Assembly: GCA_026398385.1 (NCBI GenBank)
Contig: JAPLSZ010000251.1
Span: 7,449-49,009, forward strand
DNA length: 41,561 bases
Origin: Kiritimatiellota bacterium
GTDB lineage: Bacteria; Verrucomicrobiota; Kiritimatiellia; CAIQIC01
Direction: 5' to 3'
Part shown: positions 10,931 to 41,561 of the stretch, piece by piece
Layout of the letters: every line of letters starts with the position of its first letter
How positions within the stretch are numbered: the first letter of the stretch is position 1
Notes under the pieces: model-generated
The model's database searches: none
What the model saw: the letters and a program-made list of their open reading frames with translations, nothing else
Told to the model about the DNA's origin: nothing
Program-made: the position numbers and the translations under genes

Positions 10931-11027
10931 ATTCTTCCTCCGTGCTATGCTGGGGGCCAGCGCGCGACACTCCGCCCCGGAAAGATTTCTTGCCAAGTCT
11001 GCGGTCGAACCAGCCTGAGCCGCCGCT

Positions 11028-19106: not shown

Positions 19107-19212
19107 GGCGACAATCCTCCGATCACGAAAATTCAGTATGGCACGCCGTTCCGGCGGTGTCAACACTGCTGGTGACAAGACTGTCGCCTTGACCTGCCGC
19201 CGCGGGCGCGGC

Positions 19213-19998: not shown

Positions 19999-20007
19999 AC
20001 ACGGATG
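19987..20007 (+). repeat. Copy 2 of the AGCCACGGATGAACACGGATG repeat; supplies the larB stop codon
   Basis: Identical 21-mer to 13577-13597. The TGA at 19996-19998 inside the motif terminates larB. Confidence 0.85.
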
Positions 20008-20159
20008 AAGCATGGAGAAGAATGGGGAAATTGGGGCGGGAAAAGAACGGAGTTCTATCCACAGATTGCACAGAGTACGCAGATGTTCAGCCGCTTTGCG
20101 CCTTGGCGTCTTGGCGCGAGAAACTCTTCGCCTAGGTTTTAACAACAGATAAGGCACGG
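20008..20159. repeat. Composite low-complexity/repeat spacer between larB and larC
   Basis: Contains CCACAGATTGCACAGAGTACGCAGAT (CACAGAT/CACGGAT-like units) and GCTTTGCGCCTTGGCGTCTTGGCGCG. The latter resembles the reverse complement of GCGGTTAACGCAAAGGCGCGAAGGTTGGCGG at about 13500-13530. The region ends in CACGGATGAAG, which carries the larC ATG. Confidence 0.55.
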
Positions 20160-26632: not shown

Positions 26633-29600
26633 TCATTCCAGGTCGGTGCGGGGCTTGAAGAAGCGCTCCTGGATCTTCTCCATGTAGAGGTAGATGCCGG
26701 GGGTGACGAACAGGGTGATGAGCTGGGCGAAAATCATGCCGCCGGCGACGACGAGGCCAAGGGGCTTGCGGCTGGCGGCATCGGCGCCGTAGCCGAGGGC
26801 GATGGGCATGACGCCTAGAATCGCGCACAGGCCGGTCATCAGGATCGGCCGGAACCGGACCACACAGGCATCGTGGATCGCGTCGTAGGCGTTCTTGCCC
26901 TCGCGCCGGCGCTGCTCGGCAAAGTCCACCATCAGTATGCCGTTCTTGGTGATCAGGCCGAGCAGGACGAAGACGCCGATGTAGGCGTAGAGCGACAGCT
27001 CGCTGCGGAAGGCGAACAGCGTCAGAAAGCCGCCGAAGACGGCGACAGGCAGCGTGGTCAGAATCGTGAAGGGGTGGATATAGCTTTCGTAGAGAATCCC
27101 CAGCACAATGTATTTCAGAAAAATCGCGATCAGCAGCAGCGCCCCCAGGCTGGCGATAGATTTCTTGAATTCCAACGCATCGCCGATGAAGGTGCCCGCG
27201 ACGCCCGATGGCATGAGCTGCGCGGCGCGCGCTTCGATGGCCTTGGTGATGTAGCCGAGGGGGACGCCGGGCCAGACGCTGAAGGAGATGGTCGCGGCTT
27301 CGTGCTGGTTGGCGTGCGGGACGTTCTGCGGGCTGGCTTCCTCGGTCCAGTTGACGAGGGATTTGAGCGGGACGAGGCTGCCGCTCAAGGGCGAGCGCAG
27401 ATAGAGCAGCCCGAGGTTCTCCGGCAGGCGCTGGCTGGATTTCTCGATCTCCGGGATGACCTGATACTGATCCTGGTCGGTGGTGAACTGGGTCGCATAG
27501 CCGCCGGCGAAGGCCAGCGCCAGGGCCTGTTCGATGGCCGCGACGCTGATGCCGAGCGCGGAGGCGCGGTCGCGGTCCAGGGCGACGTTCAGCCGCGGCA
27601 TGTTGAGCTTGACGCTGTTCTGGACGGCAAACGGCACGATGCCGCCGATCTGCCGCATCTCTTTTTCGAGTTGCTGCGCGGCGGCATAGACCGTGTCGCG
27701 GTCGAGGCCGGTGAGCATATAGGCGTAGTCGCTGCCCATCTGGGTAGATTCGGCGCCGGAGCTGATCTTGAGGACGGGCGCCGCGCGCAGGGCGACGATG
27801 CCTTCCGGGAAGCGGGCGAGCTTGCCCATGTATTGCTGCACGAGCTGCTCGATCGCCGGGCGCTCGTGCGGGGATTTGAGGCGGGCGAAGATGAAGCCGA
27901 TGCTTTGATCGGCGCCGGGCTGAAATCCGGTGACGCTGCCGAGCTGGGCGATGGCGGGCTCCTGCTTGAGCTGGGCGACGACCTTGGCTTGATAGGCTTG
28001 CATCTGCTCGGTGGAGGCTCCCTGCGGCATGATCATGGCGCCGAACATGAAGGAGCTGTCGCCGGGCGGCAGGAAGGAGGAGGGCAGGACGAAATAGAGG
28101 ACGCCGGTGCCCAGAATACAGGCCAGCCACATGACCACCGCGAGCCACTTGTGGCGGAGCTGCCAGTGCAGGGCCACGCTGTAGCCGCGGATCAGCCGGC
28201 CGATGTTGGCCGTGATCCAGCGCTGCACGCGGTTGGGGGCTTGTTCGTGCTTCAGGATGTGCGCGCACATCATCGGCGTGAGCGTCAGCGCGAGGATGGT
28301 CGAGACGATGATCGCATAGATGACCGTCATCGCAAACTCGTTCAGGTTCCGGCCGACCGCGCCGCTCATGAACACCAGCGGGAGGAAGACGATGATCAGC
28401 GCCGCGCTGGTGGAGATGACCGTAAAGGAGATTTCCCGCATGCTCAGCAGCGCCGCCGGGATCGGCTTCAGGCCTTCCTCCAGGTGGCGGACGGTGTTTT
28501 CCAGCACGACGATCGCGTCATCCACGAGGAAACCGACCGCCAGCACGATGCCCATCAGGGAGAGCATATCTATGTTGAACTTGCTCGGCAGCATCAGCAG
28601 CAGCGTGCCGAGGAGCGAGATCGGCAGCACGATGCTGGGGATGATTGTTTCGCGGATGCGACCGAGGAAGAAGAAGATCACCAGCACGACGAGAATCAGG
28701 GCGATGAGCACCGTCACCTCGACATCGTGCAGCGATTCGCGGATCGGGCCGGCGCCGTTGTGGAGGGCATCAATTTCAATCGAACCGGGCAGTTCGCGCT
28801 TGGCCACCGCGAGCGCTGCCGAGATTTTGTCGGCGACTTCGACGGTGTTCGCGCCGCTGGCGCGGGAGACCGCCATGACCACGCACTTGTCGGTGTCCGG
28901 CACGCCGGGCTTGGTGTAGCGGATGTTGACGAGGTCGTTGGCGATGCTGTCCACGCAGGAGGCCACGTCCTTCAGCCGGATCGGCGCGCCGGCGCGCTGG
29001 GCGATGATCAGTTCGCCGAACTCGCGGCCCGTGCGGAGCTGGCCCTGCGGTTCGATGACATAGGTGCGCACGGCGCCGTTCAGCGTGCCGCCGGGGATGT
29101 TGACCGTGCCGGCGCGCAACGCCGCGGCGAGCTCGTCTACGCCGATCTGGTAGGCCGCCAGCTTCGCCGGGCTGAACTGCACGCGCACGGCGCGCTTCGC
29201 GCCGAACACCTGCACCTGCGAGACGCCCTCGATCATGCTCAATTTGCGCGAGATGATGTGGCTGGCGTAGTCGTTGAGATCGCCATGCGTCAGCGTGGCG
29301 GAGTGCAACATGATGTAATAGATCGGCTGCTCCGATGGGTTGAACTTCTTGTAGGTTGGCGGGTTGGGCAGGTCCCTGGGCAGGTTGTTCTGCGCGCGGG
29401 TGATCGCCGCCTGGACGTCCGGCGCCACCAGGTCCACGCTGCGGCTCAGGCTGAAGGTCAGGTTGATGGTGGAGACGCCCTGCTTGTTGTCGGAGAGCAT
29501 GGACTGCAGGCCGTTGATCTGCGTGAACTCGTTTTCCAGCGGCAGCGCGACGGCGCTGGCCATGGTCGCGGGGCTGGCGCCCGGGTAGGCCACGATGACT

Positions 29601-29737
29601 TGGATGACAGGATAGTCCACCGTCGGCAGGCTGTTGACCGGCAGGCGCAGGTAGGCCCAGGCGCCGGCGACGATCATCAGGGTGGTCATCAAAATCGTCG
29701 CTATCGGGCGCCGTACAAAAACTTCAGAAAAGATCAC
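26633..29737 (-). CDS. RND efflux transporter permease (AcrB/HAE1-like)
   Basis: About 1035 aa, 12-TM. N-terminus (V)IFSEVFVRRPIATILMTTLMIVAG. Start set at GTG 29737 (GGAG upstream) rather than 29785. Confidence 0.93.
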   Translation of the reverse strand: MIFSEVFVRRPIATILMTTLMIVAGAWAYLRLPVNSLPTVDYPVIQVIVAYPGASPATMASAVALPLENEFTQINGLQSMLSDNKQGVSTINLTFSLSRSVDLVAPDVQAAITRAQNNLPRDLPNPPTYKKFNPSEQPIYYIMLHSATLTHGDLNDYASHIISRKLSMIEGVSQVQVFGAKRAVRVQFSPAKLAAYQIGVDELAAALRAGTVNIPGGTLNGAVRTYVIEPQGQLRTGREFGELIIAQRAGAPIRLKDVASCVDSIANDLVNIRYTKPGVPDTDKCVVMAVSRASGANTVEVADKISAALAVAKRELPGSIEIDALHNGAGPIRESLHDVEVTVLIALILVVLVIFFFLGRIRETIIPSIVLPISLLGTLLLMLPSKFNIDMLSLMGIVLAVGFLVDDAIVVLENTVRHLEEGLKPIPAALLSMREISFTVISTSAALIIVFLPLVFMSGAVGRNLNEFAMTVIYAIIVSTILALTLTPMMCAHILKHEQAPNRVQRWITANIGRLIRGYSVALHWQLRHKWLAVVMWLACILGTGVLYFVLPSSFLPPGDSSFMFGAMIMPQGASTEQMQAYQAKVVAQLKQEPAIAQLGSVTGFQPGADQSIGFIFARLKSPHERPAIEQLVQQYMGKLARFPEGIVALRAAPVLKISSGAESTQMGSDYAYMLTGLDRDTVYAAAQQLEKEMRQIGGIVPFAVQNSVKLNMPRLNVALDRDRASALGISVAAIEQALALAFAGGYATQFTTDQDQYQVIPEIEKSSQRLPENLGLLYLRSPLSGSLVPLKSLVNWTEEASPQNVPHANQHEAATISFSVWPGVPLGYITKAIEARAAQLMPSGVAGTFIGDALEFKKSIASLGALLLIAIFLKYIVLGILYESYIHPFTILTTLPVAVFGGFLTLFAFRSELSLYAYIGVFVLLGLITKNGILMVDFAEQRRREGKNAYDAIHDACVVRFRPILMTGLCAILGVMPIALGYGADAASRKPLGLVVAGGMIFAQLITLFVTPGIYLYMEKIQERFFKPRTDLE

Positions 29738-29771
29738 GTTTTGCTCCGTTTCTCGCCTTGGAAAAATCCGC

Positions 29772-30926
29772 TCATTCCCCCTCACGCGCGATCTTCGCCG
29801 CCGTTGGCGCCGCCGCCGGCGGCGGCTGGGTCGCGTCCATCACCGGCGCGCCGGGGAACAGCATCAACTGGCCGAGCACGACGACGTTCTCGCCGGCCTG
29901 CACGCCGGACACCGCCTGCACGAGGTCGCCCACGCGCACGCCGAGCTGTAGCGGCCGCAGTTCCGCGGTGTTCTGCGCCGAGACGACGAACAGATACGGC
30001 CCCTGCTTGCCGAATTGCACCGCGCCCTCCGGCACCATCACCGCGCCGGGCACCGTGCCGGCATGCAGGCGCACGCTGACGAACTGGTGCGCCCAGAGTT
30101 TCAGGTCCGGGTTCGGCGCGGAGCCGCGCAACTGGATGGTGCCGGTCTGCGCGCTGACGGCATTTTCGATAACGTCGAGCGTGGCGGTGTAGGTGTTCGT
30201 CTCGCCGCGCGGGACGAGTTCCAGCTTGACCGGTCCGGCGGCGAGCGCGCGGCGGATCAGCGGGAGGTAATCCTCCGAGACGGAAAAATCCACAAAGAGC
30301 GGATCATAGCTGCGGATGTTCACCAGCCGCGTCAGACCGGCGGCGACGAGGTTGCCGTCGTCGGTAGTGCGCGTCGAGCAGACGCCGGCGAGCGGCGCGG
30401 CGATCGTGCAGCGCGCCAGGTTCAGGCGCGCGAGCGCGAGCAGCGCTTCGTCGGCCTGCAGCGCGGCGCTGGCGGCGGCGAACCTGGTCTTGATCGTGCC
30501 GAAGTCCTCGGCGGAGATCAGTTTCTTTTCGAGCAGCGGCTGGTTGCGCTCCATGGTCAGGCGCGCGAGTTCGCGGTTCGCCTGGTCGGCGGCGCGCGCG
30601 GCCTCGGCCTGCTGGACGCGCGCGGCGTAGTCGCGGGGATCAATCTGGAACAGCGGCTGCGCGTTGGTGACCACGGCGCCGTCCTGGATGAACGTCTGGA
30701 GCAGTTGCCCGGAGACCTGCGGGACGATGTCCACACTCATCCGCGCCTTCGTGGTGCCGAAGGCGTTGATGAGGACCGGCGCATCCATCGGCAGCGCGGG
30801 CGTCAGCTTGACGGGGAACGCCATCTTGGGGGGCGGGCCGGCGTGCTTGCCGCAGCCCGCCATCACGGCTACTACGGCCAGCGTGGCCAGCCCGCGTGTT
30901 GTTTTCAGAAAAATGTTGGGCTTCAT
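29772..30926 (-). CDS. RND efflux periplasmic adaptor (MFP, AcrA-like), lipoprotein
   Basis: Lipobox VMAGCG. Biotinyl-lipoyl/hairpin/beta-barrel pattern (VSGQLLQTFIQDGAVV..GQPLFQIDPRDY...AEAA...C.I.AP..G). Confidence 0.9.
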   Translation of the reverse strand: MKPNIFLKTTRGLATLAVVAVMAGCGKHAGPPPKMAFPVKLTPALPMDAPVLINAFGTTKARMSVDIVPQVSGQLLQTFIQDGAVVTNAQPLFQIDPRDYAARVQQAEAARAADQANRELARLTMERNQPLLEKKLISAEDFGTIKTRFAAASAALQADEALLALARLNLARCTIAAPLAGVCSTRTTDDGNLVAAGLTRLVNIRSYDPLFVDFSVSEDYLPLIRRALAAGPVKLELVPRGETNTYTATLDVIENAVSAQTGTIQLRGSAPNPDLKLWAHQFVSVRLHAGTVPGAVMVPEGAVQFGKQGPYLFVVSAQNTAELRPLQLGVRVGDLVQAVSGVQAGENVVVLGQLMLFPGAPVMDATQPPPAAAPTAAKIAREGE

Positions 30927-30962
30927 GTTTTTCTCCGTCGCGCGATGTTCATCGTTGCATTT

Positions 30963-31036
30963 GTAGGGGCGCAGTCTTGCTGCGTCCCATGTGCTCGGCG
31001 GTCATTTAGACGGGCGCAGCAAGACTGCGCCCCTAC
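30963..31036. repeat. Perfect 22-bp inverted repeat GTAGGGGCGCAGTCTTGCTGCG ... CGCAGCAAGACTGCGCCCCTAC (30-nt spacer)
   Basis: Read directly. It lies inside the efflux operon, between the OMF stop (31072) and the MFP start (30926). Confidence 0.9.
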
Positions 31037-31071
31037 CAACTGGTTGCCAGCCGGCACGGCAAGCCAAGGTT

Positions 31072-32514
31072 TCACGGTTGCCTCTCTGCCCTGGGGGCGT
31101 CCAGGTTTTCCCGGTCGAGCGTACCGCTGGCGAAGGCCAGGTTGGCCAGGGCGGTGAAGGCCTCCTGCCGCGCCGCGATGTTCTGGCTGCGCGCGCGCGC
31201 GAGCTGCGCCTCCGCCGTGAGCAGGTTGAGGATGTTCAACAAGCCGGCCTTATAGCTGTCCAGCGCGAGGTCATAGGCCGCCTGGGCGCTGTTCAGCAGC
31301 GCGGCGCTCGCGGCGCATTTTTTCAGCGCGGTCTGGTAGTTCTGATGCCCGCTCCACACCGCGGCGCTGGCGGCGAGTTCCGCCTGTTGCAACTGGCTGC
31401 GAACCGACGCCGCCTGCGCGGCGGCGGCGCGCCGGGCGTTGCGCGTCTGCAGACCGTCGAACAGCGTCCATTGCAGACTCAGGCCCGCGCCGTAGTTCCA
31501 ATCGTTCTCGGCCACGAACTGGCCGGTCCAGACCTTGTTGTAGTCGCGCAGCGCGTGGCCGTTGAGATAGAGCGACGGCCAGTTCGGCGCGCCGGCGACC
31601 TTGATCGCCGATGTGCTCGCCTGGAGCCGGGCGCGCAGCGCGGCGATGTCCGGCCGGCGGGCGAGCGCGGCATCAATCATCGGCGTCAACTGCGCGGCGT
31701 CCACGGCCGCGGGCAGGGTTTGCGCGGGCGCAGCCACCTGGACCGCCACATCCGCCGGCAACCCCAGCGCCTGGGTCAAGGCGGCCCGCGCGTTTTGCTC
31801 AGCGCCTTCCGCGCCCGCGAGCAGGAACGCGGCTTGATCCATCAGCGCCTGCGCCTGCAACACATCCAGTTCGCGCCCGACGCCGTGGTCGCGCCGGAGC
31901 TTCGCGAACTCGAGCGCGGTCTGCGCATCCGTGAGCTGCGCCTGCGCGGCGGTGATGCCAGCCTGCGCGCTAACAAGACCAAAGTAGGCCTGCTGCACCG
32001 CCAGCAGGATACCCTGCAACGTGCTGTTGAACGTGTAGTTGGCCGCATACACGGTGTGCAGCGCCTGTTCCACGGCCGCTTCGCGTCCGCCGCCGAAGTT
32101 GAAGATCAGGTAGTTGAGCTGCAGACCCGGCCCGTAGCCCAGATAGTCCTGGTCGAGCTGGTCCACACTGGAGTTGACCTTCTGGCGGGTGACGCTGCCC
32201 TGCGCGGTGACGGTCGGCATGAAATAGCCGCGCGCCTGCTGGGCCTGCGCGGCCGCCACGCGGGCGTCGTTCCACGCCTTGCGGCTCGCCGGATTGTTCT
32301 GCAAGGCGATATCGGCCAGTTCCGCCAGCTTCAGCGGTTTGGTCAGATTGGGACAGCGCGCGCGCAGTTCCTGCCACGACTGTAAAGAGGTCCGCGCCCG
32401 TTGCGGCGGCTTCCAAGGCTGAACCGCCGATTCCGGCGCGGGCGCCGAGACGCAGCCGGCCAACGCCATGGCTGCTGTGACCAGCGCGGCCGCAAGGTAA
32501 ATCCGGTGATTCAT
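31072..32514 (-). CDS. Outer-membrane efflux factor (TolC/NodT-family lipoprotein)
   Basis: MNHRIYLAAALVTAAMALAGC lipobox. Two repeated OEP halves with a coiled-coil pattern. Start ATG 32514 overlaps the marR stop (ATGA). Confidence 0.9.
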   Translation of the reverse strand: MNHRIYLAAALVTAAMALAGCVSAPAPESAVQPWKPPQRARTSLQSWQELRARCPNLTKPLKLAELADIALQNNPASRKAWNDARVAAAQAQQARGYFMPTVTAQGSVTRQKVNSSVDQLDQDYLGYGPGLQLNYLIFNFGGGREAAVEQALHTVYAANYTFNSTLQGILLAVQQAYFGLVSAQAGITAAQAQLTDAQTALEFAKLRRDHGVGRELDVLQAQALMDQAAFLLAGAEGAEQNARAALTQALGLPADVAVQVAAPAQTLPAAVDAAQLTPMIDAALARRPDIAALRARLQASTSAIKVAGAPNWPSLYLNGHALRDYNKVWTGQFVAENDWNYGAGLSLQWTLFDGLQTRNARRAAAAQAASVRSQLQQAELAASAAVWSGHQNYQTALKKCAASAALLNSAQAAYDLALDSYKAGLLNILNLLTAEAQLARARSQNIAARQEAFTALANLAFASGTLDRENLDAPRAERQP

Positions 32515-32888
32515 GACGTGTCCCTTTTGCGCGCGCGCGACGCGCGGCGCTGTCCACGCATCTGCTCCAGGCTGCGCCGCCCTCTGGCGGTGAGCGCCAC
32601 GCGCACCTCGCGCCGGTCCGCGCGGCTGCGGCGGCGCGCCACCAGCCCGCGGCGCGCGAGTTGATCCGCCAGGCCCGTCGCCGTCGAGCCGTGCAGCCGC
32701 AGTTCCCCGGCCAGCGCGCGCATGGTGCAGGGGCCGCGATCGAAGAGGTGCTCCAGCGCCCACATCTGCGGCAAGGTGAGCGCGCCCAGCGTGGAAAGAT
32801 CGGTTTGCGAGATGCCGCGCGATAAACGCGGCAGCAGCGCGACGAGGCGCGCGGCAAACTGCTCCAGTGTGAGGGCGGCGGTGGTCAT
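32511..32888 (-). CDS. MarR-family transcriptional regulator
   Basis: 125 aa. Winged-helix pattern LTLPQMWALEHLFDRGPCTMRALAGELRLHGSTATGLADQLARRGLVAR. First gene of the efflux operon. Confidence 0.85.
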   Translation of the reverse strand: MTTAALTLEQFAARLVALLPRLSRGISQTDLSTLGALTLPQMWALEHLFDRGPCTMRALAGELRLHGSTATGLADQLARRGLVARRRSRADRREVRVALTARGRRSLEQMRGQRRASRARKRDTS

Positions 32889-32914: not shown

Positions 32915-33075
32915 GACGCGAACTATAACCCCGAATCCGCCGGGTGCAAGCGAAATAAATTCGGTTTTACGCTTGAGAAATGCCGGCGAATGCGGGATTA
33001 TGCACCATGGTTTATGGCTGCGGCAGATCAAGGACAGCGCTGCGGTGGCGGCGTGTCGGGGAAGAAGGGCAGGGT

Positions 33076-34914
33076 ATGCAGACAGGGAAACAAGAGCGCG
33101 GCGTCAGCGTTTGGCTGGCGACGCTGGTAGCACTCGGTCTGGCGGCGGGCCATCTGGCGCCGGCCCAAGCGTTGGGGAGCGGCGCGGTTCCGGCCACTGT
33201 GCACCCGGCGGACGACGAGGCCTTCGTGTTTTCGCTTACGGCCAGCAATCCGCCGGCCGCGGCTGCCGAACCGGCGGGTCTGACGAACGCGCCGCAGGCG
33301 CGTTTGAACGCGGCGCAGAACGACGTGCAGCAGGGCCGGGTGGCCCAGGCGATTCCGACACTGGAACGACTGGTGGACGAGGCGCCGCAACTGACGGACG
33401 CCTGGGAGACGCTCGGCTGGGCTTACTGGCGGCTGGGGCGGGAGGACGAAGCCCTCGCGCTATGGGGGAAATTGCTGAAGCTCAACCCGCAGATGCCGCA
33501 GGCCTACAATCTGCTGGGGGCAGCCAGCGTCAAGCGTAACGAGCTGACCATGGCCGCCATGTACTATGAAAAGAGCCTGCAGATCCAGCCGGACCAATAC
33601 GATGTGGAATTGGCCCTGGCCCGCATCGCGCGCTGGACCGGCGACGAGGAGCGTGCCATCGAAAAATTGCGGGCCTTGGCGGCGAAAGATCCCCGGCGCC
33701 GGGATGTGAAAAACGAGTTGTCCCGCGCGCTGGGGGGCGCAAGCGAAGAGCCGGCCAACCCTGTGGAACCCGGCGCGCCAGGGTCCTCCTCTGCCACCAA
33801 CGAGGAACACCGGGCGCGTCCGGCGGCGGACGCGTCATCTCCGCGCAACGCGCTCGCCGGCCAGCCGCCGGCCAGCCTCCCGGGGGACCGCGCTGCGCCT
33901 GAGCGCGCAGCCCAGCCGCCCGCCCCGCCGCTCGCGGTGGCGAGCGAGGGGCGCGGCGCGCAGAACGTCGCGCGCTACCGGCCGTATGTCGGGGCGCTAG
34001 CCGAAACCTTTCAGGATAATCTGGATAGCCGCAACTGGCGCGCATACGGACGCGCGGGCTTCCAGCCGACGCCCCGTCTGACGGTCGAAGGCCGTGCCGG
34101 TTATGGTCAGATGAAACAGGCCTTCACCAACAGCAGCGCGATCAATGTTCCCGACATCACGTTGGACGAGAAGATGGTCAGCCTCGCCCCCTCGTGCACG
34201 TCCCCGAACGGCTGGACGTTGCTGGGCGAGTTAGCGGCTCGCCAGTTCTCCGGCGCCGTTCCGGGCGCGCAGAATTTTGATAAAACCGTATTGCAATATG
34301 CCCTCGAGGGCCAGGCCAAGCCGCTGCTGCCCCTCGACGTGGCGGCGCGGTACGAGCACGACATCGTCCCCGCCGCCCGCGCGGCCCTCAAGGAGACCAC
34401 CTCCAACATGGCCTTGCTTAGCGCCGTCTGGAGCCTGACCGACTGGTGGAACCTCTGGGCCAGCGGCGAACGGTACGATTTTTCCGATGGCAATGCCCGC
34501 AACCACCTGGCGCTGAGCAGTTCCTGGCTGGTGTGGGAGCCGCTCGGCCTGCATCTGGGCCTGCGGTACGCCTATGCCGACGCCAGCGTGGCCAGTCCCG
34601 ATTACTGGACGCCTTATCAATTGCAGCGGTATTTTGTCGAGGCCGATCTGCGCGGGACGCAGCTGCGCATCTTTTATAACCTGCGCCTGCGCTATGGCCT
34701 GGGGCGGCAGGGCGTGCGGCCGGAAGCCCAGGCGGCCCTCGCCTTGCCCGGCAGCAATCCGCCCGAGGAGGGCTGGCAACCGGTGATCGGCGCCAGCGCC
34801 GCCGCGCGCGCGAAGGTCGGCAAACATTGGGAACTCAGCGGCGAAGTTTCGCACAACAAGATGCCTGACTATAACGAAACCACGGTAACGGCTGGCTTGA
34901 ACTACAGGTTCTGA
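33076..34914 (+). CDS. TPR-repeat protein fused to a C-terminal outer-membrane beta-barrel (PgaA/YaiO-type architecture)
   Basis: Signal peptide MQTGKQERGVSVWLATLVALGLAAGHLAPAQA. TPRs (DAWETLGWAYWRLGREDEALALWGKLLKLNPQMPQAYNLLG...). Pro/Ala linker. An alternating-hydrophobic C-domain of about 310 aa ends in ...TAGLNYRF (aromatic terminal residue). Confidence 0.7.
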   Translation: MQTGKQERGVSVWLATLVALGLAAGHLAPAQALGSGAVPATVHPADDEAFVFSLTASNPPAAAAEPAGLTNAPQARLNAAQNDVQQGRVAQAIPTLERLVDEAPQLTDAWETLGWAYWRLGREDEALALWGKLLKLNPQMPQAYNLLGAASVKRNELTMAAMYYEKSLQIQPDQYDVELALARIARWTGDEERAIEKLRALAAKDPRRRDVKNELSRALGGASEEPANPVEPGAPGSSSATNEEHRARPAADASSPRNALAGQPPASLPGDRAAPERAAQPPAPPLAVASEGRGAQNVARYRPYVGALAETFQDNLDSRNWRAYGRAGFQPTPRLTVEGRAGYGQMKQAFTNSSAINVPDITLDEKMVSLAPSCTSPNGWTLLGELAARQFSGAVPGAQNFDKTVLQYALEGQAKPLLPLDVAARYEHDIVPAARAALKETTSNMALLSAVWSLTDWWNLWASGERYDFSDGNARNHLALSSSWLVWEPLGLHLGLRYAYADASVASPDYWTPYQLQRYFVEADLRGTQLRIFYNLRLRYGLGRQGVRPEAQAALALPGSNPPEEGWQPVIGASAAARAKVGKHWELSGEVSHNKMPDYNETTVTAGLNYRF

Positions 34915-35014
34915 GCATGGTCGGGCTTTGAACCAATACGGACCGGTGCTATAGTGCAGCGGCGCGCCTGTGGCGGGATGGATGTTTGGGGCGGTTACGC
35001 GGACGAAAGGGGAA

Positions 35015-35245
35015 ATGCCAGTGGATACGCAATTGTTTCTCGCGAGCTTGGCCGGAATTCTCAAGGTCCTACCCGGTTCGATCAAGGGGGAAGATCAACT
35101 GGATCAATGTGCGTCTTGGGATTCGCTGGCGGTGGTCACCTTTCTGACCATGGCCAACTCGAAATTTGGCGTGCGCGTATCGCCGCCGGCGGTGATTCGA
35201 TGCAAGACGGTAGCCGATTTGATGCGGCTGGTCGCCAAGCCCTGA
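35015..35245 (+). CDS. Acyl/peptidyl carrier protein (PP-binding)
   Basis: 76 aa. ...QLDQCASWDSLAVVTFLTMANSKFGVRV with Ser codon 35123-35125 in a DSL motif. ATG 35015 is preceded by AAAGGGGAA. Confidence 0.75.
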   Translation: MPVDTQLFLASLAGILKVLPGSIKGEDQLDQCASWDSLAVVTFLTMANSKFGVRVSPPAVIRCKTVADLMRLVAKP

Positions 35246-35322
35246 TCGGCGGCCACCCGATCATAGGAGAGGCCAAGCCTGGGTTCATCCTGGAAGAGTT
35301 TGGCGCAGGCCGCCTGACATGT

Positions 35323-37188
35323 ATGGACGATTTTTTATCCACCGTTCAGAGTTGCCGGCAACTGATGACGCAGGGCGAGGTGGCCACGGCGCTCGCGGGT
35401 TTGCGGGCGGGGTTGCGTTTCGGCCAGCCGGAACCGTTCGAGTATGATCTGGCGGGACAACTGCTGGGGGAAATAGGCGCCGTGGTCCCCGCGCCCGCCG
35501 CCTTTCCGACGTACCGGGTGGGCCTCGTGGCCGACCACACCACCACCACACTGGCGAACGCGATCCGCTGCGCCTTGCTGATGGAGGGGTTGCTGCCCGT
35601 GGTCTACGAAGCGCCTTTCGGCGCGGTTTTCCAGGAAATCCTCGATCGCCACAGCGGTCTTTATCGCGAACCGCGCGACGCGGTGCTCATGGCATTTCAT
35701 CACCGTATGATCGAATATCCGGAACAGCCTTTGGGTGGCGCCGTCCCGGCCGAAGAACTGGCCGCGCGCGTGGTGGGCCGGTGGGCGGAGGCGTGGGCGG
35801 CGCTCCAGCAGAACTTGGGTTGCCAGGTGTGGCAACACACCCTGGTGCCGTCGGGTCTGGCGGGATTGGGGGCGGTGGAGCAGTCGTTGCCGGCGGCGCC
35901 GGACCAGTTCATTGGGCGGATCAATCAGCTCAGCCGCGAGCGGGCGCCGGCCTTTGTGCATTGGGTGGACACGGCCAGCCTGGCGCAACAGGTTGGGTTC
36001 AGAAACTGGCATGATCCGCGCATGTACTACTACGGCAAGTTCGGCTTCAATCCTCAGTATGTGCGGGATTACATCAACGTATTTTTGGGCGCTTTTCGCG
36101 CGGCCACCGGGCGGAACCGCAAAGTCCTGATCACAGACCTGGACAACACGCTGTGGGGCGGGGTTGTCGGCGACGCCGGCCTGGAGGAAATCAAGCTGGG
36201 TCCGGGCACGCCGGAGGGCGAAGCCCACGAAGCTTTCTGCCGCTATCTGAAAAGCCTGAAGGAACGCGGCGTTATGCTGGCGGTCTGCAGCAAGAATGAC
36301 GCGGCGACGGCGCGGGAAGTGTTCGAGCGCCATCCCCACATGCCGTTGCGGCTGGCGGATTTCTCCGCTTTTTGCTGCAACTGGAGTGACAAGGCCGGCA
36401 ATGTACTGCAGATGGCGAAGGAGTTGAACATCGGCCACACGCATCTGGCCTTCGTCGATGACAATCCCGCGGAATGCGAATTGATCCGGCGCGAATTGCC
36501 GGAGGTCGCGGTGGTGGCGTTGCCCGAGGATCCCGCCGATTTCGTGGCCGCTATTGATGAGGCGCATCTCTTCGATGCGGCGCACGTGTCGTCGGAGGAT
36601 TTGCTGCGCGCGCAATCCTACCGGGCGCGCGAGCAGGCGGAAGACGTCAAGCGTTCCGCCGGCAGCTTGGAGGCTTACCTGGCGGACCTGCGCATGGTGG
36701 GGAAATTCTTCCGGGCCAGCGCGGCGGACGTGCCCCGTCTGGCGCAGATGGAGCTCAAGACGAATCAATTCAATGTGACCACCCGTCGCTATAACGCCGA
36801 CCAGATCCGGGCCTTCCTGCAGGATGACCACATGGCGGTGTTCGCTTGTACGCTGGCCGACCGGTTTGCGAATCACGGCCTCGTTTCCACCCTGATCGCA
36901 CGCCGCGCAGGCCAGGACCTGGTGCTGGATAGCTGGCTGATGAGCTGCCGCGTTTTTTCGCGGACGCTGGAACAGTTCATGATGAATGCCTTGATCGAAT
37001 TTGCGCAGAAAAATGGCATCACGCGTATAGTCGGCGATTACCTGCCGACCTCCAAAAATGCCGTGGTGCAGGATCTTTTCTCCTCATTGGGTTTTCAACC
37101 CCTGGGCCCGAAGGCGAGCGGTCGCTGGGTGCGCAACATTCGCGACGACCCACCGCTGCCCACCAGCGTGCGCAACGACGCCACGTAA
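35323..37188 (+). CDS. FkbH-like / HAD-superfamily IIIC phosphatase-acyltransferase (carrier-protein loader)
   Basis: HAD motif I LITDLDNTLWGG (DLDNTLW = 36136-36156). KTNQFNVTTRRY. C-terminal GNAT-like block with WLMSCRVFSRTLE (Cys codon 36946-36948). N-domain VGLVADHTTTTL...VYEAPFGAVFQEILD..SGLY. The start is uncertain (35323, or 35200 overlapping the carrier gene). Confidence 0.85.
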   Translation: MDDFLSTVQSCRQLMTQGEVATALAGLRAGLRFGQPEPFEYDLAGQLLGEIGAVVPAPAAFPTYRVGLVADHTTTTLANAIRCALLMEGLLPVVYEAPFGAVFQEILDRHSGLYREPRDAVLMAFHHRMIEYPEQPLGGAVPAEELAARVVGRWAEAWAALQQNLGCQVWQHTLVPSGLAGLGAVEQSLPAAPDQFIGRINQLSRERAPAFVHWVDTASLAQQVGFRNWHDPRMYYYGKFGFNPQYVRDYINVFLGAFRAATGRNRKVLITDLDNTLWGGVVGDAGLEEIKLGPGTPEGEAHEAFCRYLKSLKERGVMLAVCSKNDAATAREVFERHPHMPLRLADFSAFCCNWSDKAGNVLQMAKELNIGHTHLAFVDDNPAECELIRRELPEVAVVALPEDPADFVAAIDEAHLFDAAHVSSEDLLRAQSYRAREQAEDVKRSAGSLEAYLADLRMVGKFFRASAADVPRLAQMELKTNQFNVTTRRYNADQIRAFLQDDHMAVFACTLADRFANHGLVSTLIARRAGQDLVLDSWLMSCRVFSRTLEQFMMNALIEFAQKNGITRIVGDYLPTSKNAVVQDLFSSLGFQPLGPKASGRWVRNIRDDPPLPTSVRNDAT

Positions 37189-37329
37189 GCAGCCGTCCGC
37201 GCGCGCGGTTATCCGGCGTCTGGAACAGGCGGCGAGTGGTCTGCTGCGGGAGCTTGCGCGCTACACAGGGCAGCGCCACCGCCGGCTAAAACGGAGGGGG
37301 CGCGTTCACGCGGGCCGGCGCTCGACGAT

Positions 37330-37722
37330 TTACATCAAGTGATTGGTCGGCGTGAAAAACCAGGCGATCCGCCGTCCGCCAAACGCGGTGGCAGGCACCG
37401 GTGGGCTCACCAGCGTGCAACCTTGCTGGAGCAGGGCGGCCATCGTCGGCGTCAGATCATCCACTTCGCAGCAAAGGTGGTAGGCGCCGATACCCTTGGC
37501 CAATGTGCGGGTGATCGGCGAGTCGTCGCTCAACGCTTCGATCAATTCGATCGCAGAGTCGGTCCCTTGAGCGGGGCCCAGGAAGCAGACCCGGACTCTT
37601 TGCATGGGGTCATCGAATGGGCCAGAGCGTACGACAAAACCAAAGGCCTGCTGATAAAACTTCACGGCCTGCTCGATGTCCGCCACCGCCACGCCCAGAT
37701 GATGAATCTTAAGATCCGTCAT
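37330..37722 (-). CDS. VOC-family protein (glyoxalase I / methylmalonyl-CoA epimerase-like)
   Basis: 130 aa. MTDLKIHHLGVAVADIEQAVKFYQQAFGF ... GAYHLCCEVDDL. Start trimmed to ATG 37722. Confidence 0.8.
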   Translation of the reverse strand: MTDLKIHHLGVAVADIEQAVKFYQQAFGFVVRSGPFDDPMQRVRVCFLGPAQGTDSAIELIEALSDDSPITRTLAKGIGAYHLCCEVDDLTPTMAALLQQGCTLVSPPVPATAFGGRRIAWFFTPTNHLM

Positions 37723-37943
37723 GGTTATTGCTCTTGCCGAAGTAAAACATACGGCGGCGCACAAGTCCAGGCGCATGGCTTCATCCGCTTGGGCGAGGTG
37801 CGGATTGCCAAACCCGCGGGATTGTAGTAGAAGCTCCGTTTCTTAAAGAAAGGCCTGTGATGAACCGACCGCCGAGCGCGAGAATAAGACGCGAGCTTAT
37901 GGCCGCCGGGCCGGGCGGGTGGGCCCGCGACAGGTGCTAAGTC

Positions 37944-39377
37944 ATGCTTTTCCCAACCCTCGCTTTTGCCGTCTTTTTCCTGATCGTGTTTTGCGGCCAC
38001 TGGCTGTTGATCCGGCACGCGGTCGCGTGGAAGCTGTTCATTCTGGCCGCGAGCTGGTTTTTCTATGCTTATTGGGACTGGCGCTTTCTGGGCCTATTGA
38101 TCCTGTACACGGTGGTCAATTACAGCCTGGCGTTGGCCTCGTACCAGAGCGGCACGCCGCCCCGGCGACGGTGGGTGGCCTTGGCCATCGTGTTCAATCT
38201 CAGCCTGCTGGGGTTCTTCAAATACTACGGCTTTTTCACGGTCTCCGCCTATGCCGTCTGCGGCTGGGTGGGACTGCGCTGTCCGCTGCCCTTGCTGGAC
38301 GTCGTGCTGCCGATCGGCATTTCCTTCTTCACGTTTCAAGCCATAAGCTATGTCATTGATGTGCACCGCGGACTGATCGAGCCGGCGCACAGCGTCATTG
38401 ACTTTGCGATCTATAAGGCTTTTTTCCCGCAACTCGTGGCCGGGCCGATCATCCGGGCGAGTCACTTTATACCGCAATTCTACCAGATCATGAGCGTGCG
38501 GCGCATTGACGCGGGCCGGGCCGCCGCCTTGATCATGGGCGGCCTGTTTAAGAAGGTGGTGATCGCCAACTATATAGCCGTGAACGTGGTGGACCCGGTC
38601 TTTGGCAACCCGTGGGCGTATCAGGGCCTGGATGTCCTGCTGGCGGTGTACGGCTATGCCGTGCAGATTTACTGCGATTTCTCCGCCTATTCCGATATCG
38701 CCATCGGCGTGGCGCAACTGCTGGGATTCCATTTCCCTGAAAATTTCAACGCGCCTTATTTCGCCCGGTCCGTCCGCGAGTTCTGGCAGCGCTGGCACAT
38801 TTCCCTGTCCACCTGGCTGCGGGATTATCTTTTTTTCAGCCTGCTCGGCACCCGGCTGGGCGCCTCGCGTTACGCGCTGGGCCTCTGCGCCTTGCTTACG
38901 TTTCTGCTGGGCGGTTTGTGGCATGGCGCCGCGTGGACGTTTGTCCTATGGGGCGCGTTGCAGGGCCTGTATATGACGACGGAGTTTCTGCTGGCCAAGC
39001 TGCTGGTCTGGATGCGCGCGGGTCGTCCGCTGCCCGAGGGACCGGTGATGCGGTTGGCGCAGCGGATGGCGGTGATCCATTTGATCTGCATTTCCCATTT
39101 GTTCTTTCGGGCGCATTCCATTACGGACGGGGTGCAACTATTACAGGGGATCATGGGTTCGTGGCACGGCGCCGTCTTGCTCACTTTCCCGGCCGTCTTG
39201 GCGCTGATCATCGGCTTTCTCACGCAATACATGGATGGCACCCGCTGCGCGCCGATTTGGAATTGGTACAACCGCCTGCCGGCGGTCGGGCAGGGGCTGC
39301 TGGCGGCGGTGGTGTTGACGATCGTCCTGGCCCTGGGGCCGCAAGGCGTGGCGCCCTTCATCTATTTTCAATTCTGA
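37944..39377 (+). CDS. MBOAT-family membrane O-acyltransferase (AlgI/DltB-like)
   Basis: 477 aa, polytopic. ISFFTFQAISYVIDV; FWQRWHISLSTWLRDYLF; GGLWHGAAWTFVLWG (conserved His codon 38922-38924). Confidence 0.9.
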   Translation: MLFPTLAFAVFFLIVFCGHWLLIRHAVAWKLFILAASWFFYAYWDWRFLGLLILYTVVNYSLALASYQSGTPPRRRWVALAIVFNLSLLGFFKYYGFFTVSAYAVCGWVGLRCPLPLLDVVLPIGISFFTFQAISYVIDVHRGLIEPAHSVIDFAIYKAFFPQLVAGPIIRASHFIPQFYQIMSVRRIDAGRAAALIMGGLFKKVVIANYIAVNVVDPVFGNPWAYQGLDVLLAVYGYAVQIYCDFSAYSDIAIGVAQLLGFHFPENFNAPYFARSVREFWQRWHISLSTWLRDYLFFSLLGTRLGASRYALGLCALLTFLLGGLWHGAAWTFVLWGALQGLYMTTEFLLAKLLVWMRAGRPLPEGPVMRLAQRMAVIHLICISHLFFRAHSITDGVQLLQGIMGSWHGAVLLTFPAVLALIIGFLTQYMDGTRCAPIWNWYNRLPAVGQGLLAAVVLTIVLALGPQGVAPFIYFQF

Positions 39378-39384
39378 GACGACC

Positions 39385-39672
39385 ATGAAAGAAATGTCCG
39401 ACATTGGCGCCGAACGCAGGCAACAAGGCCACGGGCAGACCATCATCCGGACGGCAGCGGCCGTGCTTTGCTTCTATGTGTTTGCGGGCCTGCTCAACGG
39501 CGAGGCCCTCCGGCACGACGTGGAACTCATGCCCTACGGGGGCCGACGGGATGTCTGCGTGGCCCTCGTCAAGCCCATGGCCTGGTTGAGCCGGGTGACC
39601 TACCTGGGATCCTTCCGGAGCTGGATCGAAAAAAGCGTCCGCAAAGCGGATATGGCGGCGCCGAATCCCTGA
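39385..39672 (+). CDS. Small single-TM membrane protein (hypothetical; MBOAT partner candidate)
   Basis: 95 aa, starting 7 nt after the MBOAT stop. One TM, IIRTAAAVLCFYVFAGLL. No recognisable domain. Confidence 0.5.
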   Translation: MKEMSDIGAERRQQGHGQTIIRTAAAVLCFYVFAGLLNGEALRHDVELMPYGGRRDVCVALVKPMAWLSRVTYLGSFRSWIEKSVRKADMAAPNP

Positions 39673-39677
39673 CGGCC

Positions 39678-41561
39678 TTAGAACTTGAACTTGATTCCGC
39701 CCAGCAGGTTCAGCGAGTTATAATCGGGCAGGCGGTTATAGGAAACTTCCCCGTTCAATTCCCAATGGCCACCTAATTTGATCCGCGTGGCCGCCACCAG
39801 CCCCAGCACGGGTTCCCAGCCCGGTTCCTCGATCGGGTTGGCCAGCAGGACATCAATATAATGCTGGAAGTTTCTAATGGTGGCCGGGCTGAATCTTCTG
39901 CTGCGGGCTGTTCGCAGGCTTTGCTGCAACTGTTGCAGATCTTCCTGATACTTGCGCTTGGCTTCAGGACGCAAGCTCTCCTTGCCGAGGCCGTAGCGCA
40001 CGCCGATATTGTAATAGATCCGCCGGTAGGTGCGCCGGAAAAAGGCTTCCAGGTAGTAGCGGTTCAGTTTATAGGGCGTCCAGTAGTCCGGACTGGCTTC
40101 GTCGGCGGAGGTATATTCATAGCGCAGCCCCAGGCGGAAACCGGCGGGCTCATACAGCAGCCACAAGCTTTCCGCCATCAAATGATTGCGGTTGTTGGAA
40201 TCGGAAAACATGTAACGCGTGCCGCTGGCGTTGAGGTCCCACCAATCGAACAGACGGTAGGCCGCGGCGAGCGTGCCGGCGTTGTAGGTGGTATCTTTAA
40301 GCGCCGCGCGCGCGGAAGGCACGATGTCGTGCTCCCAACGCGCGGCCACGTCCAGCGGCAACAGCGGCTTGATCTGTGCTTCCGCCGCATACTGGATTAC
40401 CGTTTTGTCGAAGTTGGCTGTGTGGCCGTTCAAGTCCGTCGGCACCTTGCCCGTGAAGTGGCGATCAGAAAGCTCGCCCAGCAACACCCAGCCGTTGGGG
40501 AATTTGACCGCCGGCGCCACGCCCACCGTGCGCTCATCCAGTCGAATCTCCGGTCCGTTGAGCGCCAGATTGTTGGTGAACGCCTGCTGCATCCGGCCGA
40601 TGCCCGCCGTGCCCTCCACGGTGATGTTGGGGGTCAGGTTCAAACCCCCGAGGCCCAGGAGGCGCCAGTTGCGACTGTCGAGGTTGTCCTTGAGATACTC
40701 CGCCCGGACGCCGACATACGGGTCTTTCAATTCCAGATGGAAGGGTCCCTTGGTGACTTTACTGATACCCACCGGTGTCGTGCGCACCCCCGTCAGGCGT
40801 TCGTACACGTAACTCGCCACTTTGTTGTAGGCATTCGTCGGATAGCCGTCCTGCCGCAATTGCGCCAAGGCGTCCTTGGATTTATAGATCTTGCCTTCCT
40901 GGGCGGCGTATTCGGCCCGCAGCCGGTGGGCCAGAAAGACCGGGTGATTGCGCAGGAGGTATTCCACGGCTTCCGCTCCCGGCAGGCGCCCCAGCTCGTG
41001 GCGCTGGTAGAGCAGGGGGTTGTCGCCGTTGACCGCGTAACCAAACTGGCTTTGGATAAAGCCGGTTTTATAGTTGGCGGCCGCTTCCCGGAGATTGACC
41101 GTGAGGGCCTCGGGCATGTCGCTGCGCGTTTCCTGGCCGAGGTCGCCCATGGGGTAGGCGATGATATCCGCTGCGCCGCCCAGCTTCTGCTGCATAATTT
41201 CGCGGCTGCGCTGGTATTCATATTTGATGCGGGCATCATATTCGTTTTCGGTTTCCAGCCGGTTCGGCGCAGCGAGCCATAGGCGGTTGGCCAGCGGATG
41301 GATGACCGAATTGTCGGACTCCATGTGCAGCACCTCATGGGCTTCCATCAAATGGCTGCCAAACCGCCAGCGGCCCGTGGCTTGAGCGGCCTTCATCTGC
41401 TCCCAGGAACTGGTGTAGGAATCGTGATCCACATGGCCCACGGGCACATGCATGAGGAATGTCGTGTTGAAATCCTGCGCCACCGCGGTCCCCAGCCGCA
41501 GGGCCTCCCGCCGCGCATCGTCGAAGGTGACCATGACCACACGCTCGGGTGTACCCGTCGG
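39678..41561 (-). CDS. NodB/PgaB-like polysaccharide deacetylase fused to a C-terminal outer-membrane beta-barrel; 5' end beyond the window
   Basis: The frame is open to the window edge (...PTGTPERVVMVTFDD). TFDD (41517-41528) and H-x4-H (GSHLMEAH) are as in PgaB, plus AYPMG. The C-terminal domain of about 345 aa is paralogous to 33980-34914 and ends ...GGIKFKF. Confidence 0.75.
   Translation of the reverse strand, partial: PTGTPERVVMVTFDDARREALRLGTAVAQDFNTTFLMHVPVGHVDHDSYTSSWEQMKAAQATGRWRFGSHLMEAHEVLHMESDNSVIHPLANRLWLAAPNRLETENEYDARIKYEYQRSREIMQQKLGGAADIIAYPMGDLGQETRSDMPEALTVNLREAAANYKTGFIQSQFGYAVNGDNPLLYQRHELGRLPGAEAVEYLLRNHPVFLAHRLRAEYAAQEGKIYKSKDALAQLRQDGYPTNAYNKVASYVYERLTGVRTTPVGISKVTKGPFHLELKDPYVGVRAEYLKDNLDSRNWRLLGLGGLNLTPNITVEGTAGIGRMQQAFTNNLALNGPEIRLDERTVGVAPAVKFPNGWVLLGELSDRHFTGKVPTDLNGHTANFDKTVIQYAAEAQIKPLLPLDVAARWEHDIVPSARAALKDTTYNAGTLAAAYRLFDWWDLNASGTRYMFSDSNNRNHLMAESLWLLYEPAGFRLGLRYEYTSADEASPDYWTPYKLNRYYLEAFFRRTYRRIYYNIGVRYGLGKESLRPEAKRKYQEDLQQLQQSLRTARSRRFSPATIRNFQHYIDVLLANPIEEPGWEPVLGLVAATRIKLGGHWELNGEVSYNRLPDYNSLNLLGGIKFKF

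Follow-up and report, generated by a model that had tools for sequence, protein, structure and literature searches.

A candidate MBOAT-SGNH acylation locus of Kiritimatiellota with a linked FkbH-type loader and acyl carrier protein

We describe a locus in a 41,561-nucleotide stretch of DNA from a Kiritimatiellota bacterium (hereafter the window), in which genes for an acyl carrier protein (ACP), an FkbH-like loading enzyme and a membrane-bound O-acyltransferase (MBOAT) are nested between two genes for proteins with a predicted outer-membrane barrel. The window belongs to a 49,009-bp contig of a metagenome-assembled genome, whose annotated proteins MCX6997538-41 come from this locus; MCX6997538.1 is the FkbH protein, with an identical start. 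An initial annotation of the nucleotide sequence had proposed seven open reading frames in a given order, and all of them were recovered, with coordinates that deviate by a few bases at most (Table 1). Its domain calls were likewise borne out by profile searches, and the two barrel regions, which it had considered paralogous, are 51% identical across 374 residues (E 1e-123).

Table 1. Genes of the locus, their positions in the window and the evidence on which their description is based
Feature	Position	Strand	Evidence
TPR+barrel protein	33073..34914	+	TPR families E 1e-13 to 1e-14; barrel alone PF13505 OMP_b-brl 30.4 bits (cut-off 28.7)
Acyl carrier protein, 76 aa	35015..35245	+	PF00550 PP-binding E 5e-8; WDSL serine motif
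FkbH-like loader, 621 aa	35323..37188	+	TIGR01686 FkbH 291.2 bits (cut-off 146.65)
VOC/glyoxalase-fold protein	37330..37776	-	Glyoxalase_4 E 2e-22
MBOAT acyltransferase, 477 aa	37944..39377	+	PF03062 E 1e-21
Single-pass membrane microprotein, 95 aa	39385..39672	+	One hydrophobic segment; no family match
CE4 deacetylase+barrel, C-terminal 627 aa, clipped by the window edge	39678..41561	-	Polysacc_deac_1 E 1e-7

The carrier protein has its phosphopantetheine-attachment serine, Ser37, within the WDSL motif (nt 35123-35125), and its counterparts in the related loci L002, L008 and L009 are 67-95% identical to it. From its N- to its C-terminus, the neighboring FkbH-like protein comprises FkbH_N, HAD-IIIC phosphatase and acyl-transfer domains; it also exceeds the cut-off of the NCBIfam model TIGR01681 (59.5 bits, cut-off 35.75), and its HAD part matches the PDB structure 3SLR (BF1531) with an E-value of 3e-48. 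Its HAD motif, D272-L-D274-x-T276 (nt 36136-36150), and a cysteine in the sequence W-x-M-S-C-R, Cys542 (nt 36946-36948), are strictly conserved, with D272, D274, T276 and C542 invariant in 20 homologues. By analogy with OzmB and FkbH, Cys542 is the presumed catalytic cysteine that forms the thioester. The FkbH enzymes of polyketide pathways use 1,3-bisphosphoglycerate to produce glyceryl-ACP (PMC7489565), and by analogy the acyl group of the window pathway probably starts as glyceryl. The VOC protein, which is 93% conserved in L009, has methylmalonyl-CoA epimerase (TIGR03081) as its top NCBIfam match, albeit with 66 bits below the cut-off of 115. It is a candidate tailoring enzyme acting on the α-carbon of the acyl thioester and may epimerize its 2-position. 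Profile searches detected no AMP-binding (DltA-type) protein in the locus, and no polyketide synthase (PKS), FabH-like protein or homolog of FkbI, FkbK or FkbG in the window.

For the MBOAT, DltB is the best match in both NCBIfam and the PDB. However, the DltB structures align with residues 124-388 only (E 2e-31), and the protein falls far short of the DltB equivalog model TIGR04091 (164.7 bits, cut-off 375). The approximately 90 residues beyond the DltB-homologous part terminate with GVAPFIYFQF; neither this C-terminus nor the catalytic His285 (nt 38796-38798) varies among 17 homologues. This end contains an FXYXXF acyl-shuttle motif (F472-I-Y474-F-Q-F477, nt 39357-39374). In the Dlt system, this motif is found on the microprotein DltX, whereas PatA, AlgI and related enzymes carry it at the end of the MBOAT itself, beyond two additional helices, and the tyrosine of the motif hands the acyl group to an SGNH partner protein (PMC12148441). 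Because of the fused C-terminal FIYFQF, the window MBOAT is assigned by its sequence to the PatA/AlgI architecture rather than to the DltB-like one, and the 95-aa protein, which lacks an FXYXXF motif, is not DltX. The Dlt paradigm, on which the initial annotation had drawn, thus applies at the donor end, where a carrier protein is encoded beside the MBOAT, but not at the membrane end. Assignments to AlgI/AlgJ/AlgF/AlgX, Wss or Pel were rejected, because homologs of their partner proteins were not found.

The 95-aa microprotein (locus tag NTV49_10755) represents a family of its own. It has no match in Pfam or NCBIfam even at an E-value of 10, ten family members having been compared with NCBIfam, and the same result speaks against its identification with the N-terminal region of PatB, to which it is equivalent in position only. 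In a collection of 1.84 billion representative sequences, we found 75 relatives, all of about 70-125 aa bar one of 292 aa; F30, N38 and P64 are invariant residues of the family. A family member invariably comes after the MBOAT in this clade, adjoining it in L002, L008, L011, L015, L171, L172, L173 and L174, and it is probably a docking subunit between the MBOAT and an SGNH transferase. Such a transferase is encoded in every longer relative (L002, L008, L171, L172 and L174), in the form of a DUF459/PatB-type SGNH gene; the L171 protein has PatB as its best NCBIfam match and matches PatB structures in the PDB with E-values of 1e-15 to 1e-18. In the case of the window, the corresponding gene may reside in the approximately 7.4 kb of the source contig that lie outside it. 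DUF459 proteins constitute the PatB family, whose sole characterized function is the O-acetylation of peptidoglycan, although PatB also takes chitooligosaccharides in vitro (PMC9487903).

A comparison with the nearest loci, L171, L172, L174, L011 and L015, whose MBOATs are 52-68% identical to that of the window, points to the history of this arrangement. Their common, compact cassette reads TPR-CE4-barrel protein (about 1,140-1,220 aa), MBOAT, homolog of the window microprotein (90-99 aa) and DUF459 SGNH protein (216-230 aa); L011 (5.2 kb) and L015 are short contigs on which it is partial, with L015 ending before any SGNH gene. In these five loci, we found neither an ACP nor an FkbH gene (within 10 kb to either side, or as far as the contig extends), nor was a polymerizing glycosyltransferase present in the sequence examined. 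Within the MBOAT clade, ACP and FkbH are confined to a sub-clade formed by the window, L009, L002/L003, L008 and L173, in which the gene set is kept in rearranged order, supporting the expectation that these genes belong together. The order is ACP-FkbH-MBOAT-microprotein in L002 and MBOAT-microprotein-ACP-FkbH in L008; L009 shows TPR-barrel-ACP-FkbH-VOC before its contig stops 20 residues into the MBOAT, and L173, whose contig starts inside FkbH, retains FkbH-MBOAT-microprotein. The accessory genes vary: the window and L009 have VOC, L002 has an FkbM-family methyltransferase, and L008 encodes a MaoC-SDR protein together with a methyltransferase. The presence of different tailoring genes next to ACP and FkbH fits a diversification of the acyl group. 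The second TPR/barrel paralog is found in the window, L009, L002 and L008, while L173 is too short to tell. Judging from this distribution, the ACP/FkbH pair appears to be a recent add-on to an older, carrier-free operon. The initial annotation had viewed the locus as a combination of three logics in a single system; as an ancestral state, this view has to be abandoned, given that the sister operons lack a carrier protein and that ACP and FkbH seem to have been added later.

In two distant relatives, the carrier-free operon (L171:1935-5616 and L172:1576-4937) is located beside ruvC, yebC and fusA, a setting that suggests a vertically inherited core envelope function. A different layout is seen in L174:1-9996, where a PMT/PMT_2 (GT-C) protein, whose gene runs off the end of the locus, and three tandem TPR-CE4 paralogs, the last of them with a barrel, precede the MBOAT. 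This layout suggests that the deacetylase module was duplicated more than once and that a periplasmic glycosyltransferase may be linked to it.

The gain of ACP and FkbH is accompanied by a change in the MBOAT itself. In MBOATs, the helix with the catalytic histidine, WHISLSTWLRDYLY, precedes a loop site, at which YIPLGG(S/N)R is replaced by FFSLLGTRLG in the window protein (residues 297-306, nt 38832-38861). Of 74 MBOATs that do not adjoin FkbH, 71 show the more general pattern (I/V)(P/S)LGG(S/N)(R/K); the three exceptions include L001, a short contig that carries the sequence of the window itself. By contrast, the loop is absent in 30 of the 34 MBOATs that are adjacent to FkbH (Fisher p = 7e-20 with L001 removed, uncorrected for phylogeny). 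The same association is seen among close relatives, at about equal sequence distance from the window MBOAT: the MBOATs of the window, L002, L008 and L173 are loop-less and accompanied by FkbH, those of the window, L002, L008 and P0123 reading FFSL(L/Y)..., whereas L171, L174, L172 and L015 have kept the loop and show no FkbH or ACP within 10 kb to either side or up to the contig end. Even P0125 and P0128 (L171), which are 66-68% identical to the window MBOAT, retain YIPLGGSR. For two proteins, the loop was read before the gene neighborhood was fetched; the loop-less P0123 then proved to have FkbH directly upstream, and the looped P0125 had none within 10 kb upstream. DltB, to our knowledge the one MBOAT with proven dependence on a carrier protein, lacks YIPLGG(S/N)R as well. 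The loop lies about 14 residues past the histidine, within a helix directed to the cytoplasmic side, and in PatA conserved arginine residues line an acyl-coenzyme A (acyl-CoA) pocket on the cytoplasmic face (PMC12148441). We infer that the loop helps to bind CoA and that it is dispensable or even obstructive when the donor is an acyl-ACP, so that it may serve as a sequence marker that distinguishes acyl-CoA from carrier-protein donors.

The pairing of FkbH, ACP and MBOAT is also found far outside this clade. A metagenome scan with an FkbH alignment yielded 80 loci, with FkbH relatives at 33-44% identity. An MBOAT is in view in 30 of them, corresponding to 60% of the 50 loci that either have at least 3 kb of downstream sequence or an MBOAT in view, and in 28 of these 30 it is encoded on the same strand, 140-5,186 bp past FkbH. 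An ACP of the (G)WDS type accompanies FkbH in 64 of the 80 loci, the full triad occurs in 28, usually in the order FkbH, ACP, MBOAT, and VOC homologs are found close to FkbH in eight. Conversely, among 80 genome loci picked as MBOAT relatives, an FkbH gene was found near the MBOAT in only one (L058), which shows that the pairing is specific and no general trait of polysaccharide loci. The proposal that a loader charges a carrier protein, which in turn supplies the MBOAT, is therefore backed by conserved linkage, both in the clade of the window and, for 28 of the 80 loci, among unrelated metagenomic sequences, as well as by the donor-linked change in the MBOAT.

These metagenomic loci display a number of further features. 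Their MBOATs are often flanked by a membrane-anchored protein of 350-420 aa, in which a Gly-x-Ser, mostly GSS, and a C-terminal histidine, mostly in a D-x-x-H context, are invariant. An assignment as DltD failed, as these proteins have no Pfam match and a profile of them reaches no more than an E-value of 0.03, with a GDSL lipase; we tentatively regard their sequences as SGNH-like. Near FkbH-linked MBOATs without a fused shuttle, we noticed two open reading frames that end in a transmembrane segment followed by FIYIDF or FFYQGF (L163:2117-2323, minus strand, and L136:3656-4006, plus strand). The former looks DltX-type, and the latter may be a frameshifted MBOAT C-terminus. Other MBOATs, of about 405-440 aa (L132, L141, L148, L153, L154 and L170), end in ...(K/R)EI(F/L)xxLR, with no FXYXXF motif detected nearby. 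FkbH-like genes also occur in nonulosonic-acid loci (L005-L007, around 7552-11923) together with NeuB, a CMP-transferase and an aminotransferase. These loci have no MBOAT and carry a cytoplasmic N-acyltransferase instead, of the Antibiotic_NAT family, and they further encode MaoC, a methyltransferase and a 75-aa candidate ACP, for which no Pfam match was recorded. Their probable role is to N-acylate a sugar in the cytoplasm with a group derived from glycerate.

The remaining two genes of the locus encode the presumptive outer-membrane components. The left-hand protein has a signal peptide, as read by eye, and about four TPRs (residues ~70-220), which a linker rich in Pro and Ala joins to a C-terminal domain of about 330 aa that ends in ...NYRF. 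It constitutes a short paralog of the right-hand protein without the CE4 domain. Its C-terminal domain shows amphipathic β-periodicity in 12 segments and, on its own, faint matches to PgaA_barrel (E 0.056) and BCSC_C (E 0.17). The right-hand protein has a barrel that ends in ...KFKF, preceded by a CE4 domain in whose sequence we read a TFDD motif and H-x4-H spacing. Its full length is probably about 1,150-1,250 aa, including N-terminal TPRs, by comparison with its full-length relatives, which measure 1,137-1,254 aa and have the order TPR-CE4-barrel. In agreement with the PgaB-like deacetylase of the initial annotation, the only PDB matches of the CE4 domain are the poly-N-acetylglucosamine (PNAG) deacetylases BpsB, PgaB and IcaB (E 2e-4 to 4e-2); the score against the NCBIfam PgaB model is 32.5 bits, compared with a cut-off of 322. 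H-x4-H spacing is common to PgaB and IcaB, as opposed to the H-x3-H of PgdA-type enzymes. The TPR regions give weak NCBIfam matches to the exopolysaccharide porins PgaA, BcsC and PelB. In a word-indexed search of 5.8 billion proteins, the barrel domain (33910-34914) retrieved just two relatives and not even the proteins of the window; as relatives nonetheless exist in L002, L008, L171, L172 and L174, either the family has few members or the index covers it poorly.

Several of these observations bear on the nature of the target polymer. In L008, one of the FkbH-bearing relatives, a GH75 chitosanase-family gene (11994-12728, minus strand) lies between two TPR/deacetylase genes, which hints at a polymer with deacetylated hexosamine. 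Given the PDB matches of the CE4 domain, the TPR-plus-barrel layout and this GH75 gene, the target is most likely a GlcNAc-rich, partly deacetylated, PNAG-like exopolysaccharide, as far as can be judged from these sequences. The proposal that the barrel proteins are porins that export the polymer fared less well, considering that their resemblance to PgaA and BcsC is faint and that there is no synthase within 10 kb on either side, or up to the contig end, in the window and six relatives. The observation that the window encodes no polymerizing glycosyltransferase was correct; its only glycosyltransferase is a GT4 protein at 22222-23415.

Taken together, these findings lead us to a model that we consider somewhat favored, in which the locus encodes an MBOAT-SGNH system for the extracytoplasmic acylation of an envelope glycan, in which a dedicated, FkbH-loaded acyl-ACP has taken the place of acyl-CoA as the donor. 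The FkbH-like enzyme, by means of its HAD domain and Cys542, would load a glycerate unit, by analogy derived from 1,3-bisphosphoglycerate, onto the 76-aa ACP as a thioester, and the VOC protein might epimerize or otherwise tailor the resulting 2-hydroxyacyl thioester. The acyl-ACP would then dock on the cytoplasmic face of the MBOAT, where His285 would transfer the acyl group through the membrane tunnel onto Tyr474 of the FIYFQF motif. From there, a PatB-type (DUF459) SGNH transferase, which the 95-aa microprotein probably tethers to the MBOAT, would pass it on to the glycan. At the outer membrane, this polymer would also be the substrate of the flanking TPR/barrel proteins, one of them with its PgaB-like CE4 domain.

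A number of points weigh against this model. The pathway in the window is incomplete, as it includes neither a polymerizing glycosyltransferase nor an SGNH transferase, for which we searched all 41.5 kb by tblastn with the DUF459 proteins of L002 and L008. A PgaC/PgaD-like family 2 glycosyltransferase (GT2) synthase is missing from the window and from the gene lists of L002, L008, L171, L172, L173 and L174; the few kilobases of L011 and L015 that were scanned by tblastn have no GT2 synthase either. Since the closest relatives of the MBOAT work without a carrier protein, the enzyme could still use acetyl-CoA, and the SGNH partner of the relatives belongs to the PatB family, whose sole known substrate is peptidoglycan. 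It is by homology to polyketide enzymes, rather than to any characterized FkbH-like protein of a glycan locus, that the acyl group is taken to be glyceryl. Four FkbH-adjacent MBOATs, one in L004 and three paralogs in L058, retain the loop, and its role in CoA binding is itself something that we infer. Finally, the barrel fold is unconfirmed: an AlphaFold2 model, based on a four-sequence alignment, was discarded for its mean confidence (pLDDT) of 32, and a profile of eight barrel sequences found no PDB match at E-values up to 10.

In an alternative reading, the route from acyl-ACP via MBOAT to SGNH protein is the same, but ends on peptidoglycan. In this case, the system would perform a PatA/PatB-like O-acylation, with the TPR-CE4-barrel protein as a peptidoglycan N-deacetylase anchored in the outer membrane, and constitute a lysozyme-resistance module. 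Peptidoglycan stays a live alternative because of the PatB-type SGNH protein in the relatives, with its single characterized role (PMC9487903), and because of the lack of a linked synthase; neither a synthase nor another glycosyltransferase is found within 10 kb in L171 and L172, and none is close by in the window. The position of the operon beside the housekeeping genes ruvC, yebC and fusA in L171 and L172 also suggests a core envelope function. On the other hand, the CE4 domain finds none of the many peptidoglycan deacetylase structures in the PDB, its histidine spacing is that of PgaB and IcaB, a TPR region with a C-terminal barrel is the architecture of exopolysaccharide porins, and a chitosanase-family gene sits between the TPR proteins of L008. 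Moreover, the activity of PatB on chitooligosaccharides means that a DUF459 partner alone does not imply a peptidoglycan target. On balance, we consider this alternative unlikely, though not negligible.

Still less probable, in our opinion, is that the MBOAT continues to be fed by acetyl-CoA, while ACP, FkbH and VOC form a separate cytoplasmic pathway that merely shares the locus, for example one for the acylation of a nucleotide sugar or a lipid. Such a division of labor would be in line with the sister operons, whose MBOATs are 57-68% identical and which show no ACP or FkbH in the sequence examined, with the FkbH-ACP pairs that do without an MBOAT in nonulosonic-acid loci, and with the preserved PatA/AlgI architecture and its fused shuttle. 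Yet it would leave the same-strand arrangement of FkbH, ACP and MBOAT in 28 unrelated loci unaccounted for, as well as an adjacency that survives rearrangement within the clade; besides the MBOAT, the window holds no acyltransferase able to use acyl-ACP, and the post-histidine loop has been lost exactly in the FkbH-bearing lineage, a correlation that also held in prospect. As to chance adjacency or an assembly artefact, without any shared function, one could point to the metagenomic origin of the sequence, to the VOC gene and the right-hand gene on the opposite strand, and to a promoter and terminator scan, in which counts equaled the shuffled expectation and no significant operon-defining signal emerged. 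However, the junctions of the window recur on independent contigs from other samples, which are 100% (L001 and L010) or 95% (L009) identical, so that the arrangement is no assembly artefact, and L002, L008 and L173 have retained the gene set, with identities of 65-75%. We therefore deem this explanation highly improbable and effectively refuted by the independent contigs.

Under our favored model of an ACP-fed MBOAT acting on an envelope glycan, the system would be Dlt-like at its donor end and PatA/PatB-like at its membrane and periplasmic end, with a polyketide-type loader and PgaA/PgaB-like outer-membrane proteins. Like Dlt, it has a small carrier protein encoded beside an MBOAT that resembles DltB in its best matches and in the missing loop, and the acyl group is expected to pass via an acyl-tyrosine to an SGNH protein (PMC12148441). 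Unlike in Dlt, the loader is of the FkbH/HAD-IIIC type in place of the adenylating DltA, the acyl moiety is probably a hydroxy acid instead of D-alanine, the shuttle motif is fused to the MBOAT and not carried by DltX, and the SGNH protein of the relatives is of the PatB type and not DltD; also, its genes stand beside those of outer-membrane proteins, in a Gram-negative host. With PatA/PatB and AlgI-type systems, it shares the two extra C-terminal helices and the terminal FXYXXF of the MBOAT as well as, in the sister operons, the pairing with a DUF459/PatB-type SGNH protein. It differs from PatA/PatB in the ACP and loader linked to the MBOAT, in the lost post-histidine loop, in the DUF459 protein of the relatives, which lacks the membrane-anchoring N-terminal region of PatB and is accompanied by a separate microprotein of 90-97 aa instead, in the missing Ape1 esterase and in the presence of a CE4/TPR/barrel protein.

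Similarly, the loader resembles those of the FkbH/OzmB/tetronate type, with its FkbH domain above the cut-off, the DxDxT motif and conserved cysteine, and a stand-alone ACP next door. Unlike these, it is not accompanied by a PKS, a FabH-like tetronate enzyme or FkbI/FkbK/FkbG, and the apparent consumer of its acyl-ACP is a membrane acyltransferase of the envelope. Lastly, the outer-membrane proteins recall PgaA/PgaB and IcaB, in that the CE4 domain matches PgaB, BpsB and IcaB and that TPRs precede a predicted outer-membrane barrel, as in PgaA with its 16-stranded porin. Yet TPRs, CE4 domain and barrel are fused in a single polypeptide of about 1,150-1,250 aa, the gene is duplicated, there is neither an adjacent PgaC/PgaD synthase nor a GH153-like C-terminal domain as in PgaB, and all equivalog scores are far below their cut-offs. 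When each is taken as a whole, the locus thus belongs to none of the Dlt, PatA/PatB, FkbH-loader and Pga families.

A review of envelope acylation treats Dlt as the sole MBOAT pathway that is fed by a carrier protein, with other MBOAT/SGNH pathways doing without one and using acyl-CoA (PMC12148441). In a full-text literature search, with subscription-only articles outside its reach, we found no report of FkbH or HAD-IIIC proteins together with DltB, AlgI, DltD or an envelope MBOAT; the only published combinations of FkbH and MBOAT that it returned concern cyanobacterial peptides. The claim that no characterized system of this composition is known has thus held up so far. It is quite conceivable, though we advance the idea tentatively, that a widespread and hitherto undescribed branch of MBOAT-SGNH systems exists, in which FkbH loaders and ACPs supply glycerate-derived acyl groups that are epimerized, methylated or dehydrated, and in which loss of the loop marks a switch of donor that happened recently in Kiritimatiellota, within a conserved operon for TPR-CE4-barrel protein, MBOAT, microprotein and PatB-like SGNH protein. 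With the same reservation, the Kiritimatiellota clade might feed a PatA/AlgI-type MBOAT with a fused shuttle in this way, and at least part of the metagenomic cassettes a shorter, motif-less one.

If the cassette works as proposed, carrier-protein-fed MBOATs would be common in uncultured bacteria of soil and peat and in the Planctomycetes-Verrucomicrobia-Chlamydiae (PVC) group, and the ester chemistry of surface polymers would extend past acetyl and D-alanyl to glycerate-derived groups. The loop YIPLGG(S/N)R would then be a simple marker for predicting the donor of an MBOAT, and the locus would offer a candidate route to glyceryl esters on bacterial polysaccharides, of which gellan, with its L-glycerate, is an example.

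In the window, the module has been relocated next to an operon for an RND-like efflux system, which lies directly upstream of the TPR-barrel gene in divergent orientation (26633-32888, minus strand). To judge from length, translation and order, this operon encodes a 1,050-aa pump, a periplasmic adaptor, an outer-membrane factor and a MarR-type regulator. It accompanies the module in no relative; the RND and MarR genes were rejected as parts of the system on these grounds, and so was the GT4 gene. Farther away, at 18988-21536, a LarB-like (AIR-carboxylase-like) gene adjoins the nickel-insertion gene LarC (PF01969 E 3e-126), with a radical SAM gene (13765-16413) and a PUA-methyltransferase gene (16423-17658, minus strand) nearby; this region is possibly a nickel-pincer cofactor locus. 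The segments 188-8693 and 12209-13492 encode MFS and RhaT-like transporters, a GH2 protein, an α-L-fucosidase with F5/8 type C domains and a BamB-like PQQ_2 protein. Similar genes, for a fucosidase, PQQ_2 and rhamnose-related proteins, follow the sister operon of L171, and the resemblance may reflect remnant synteny.

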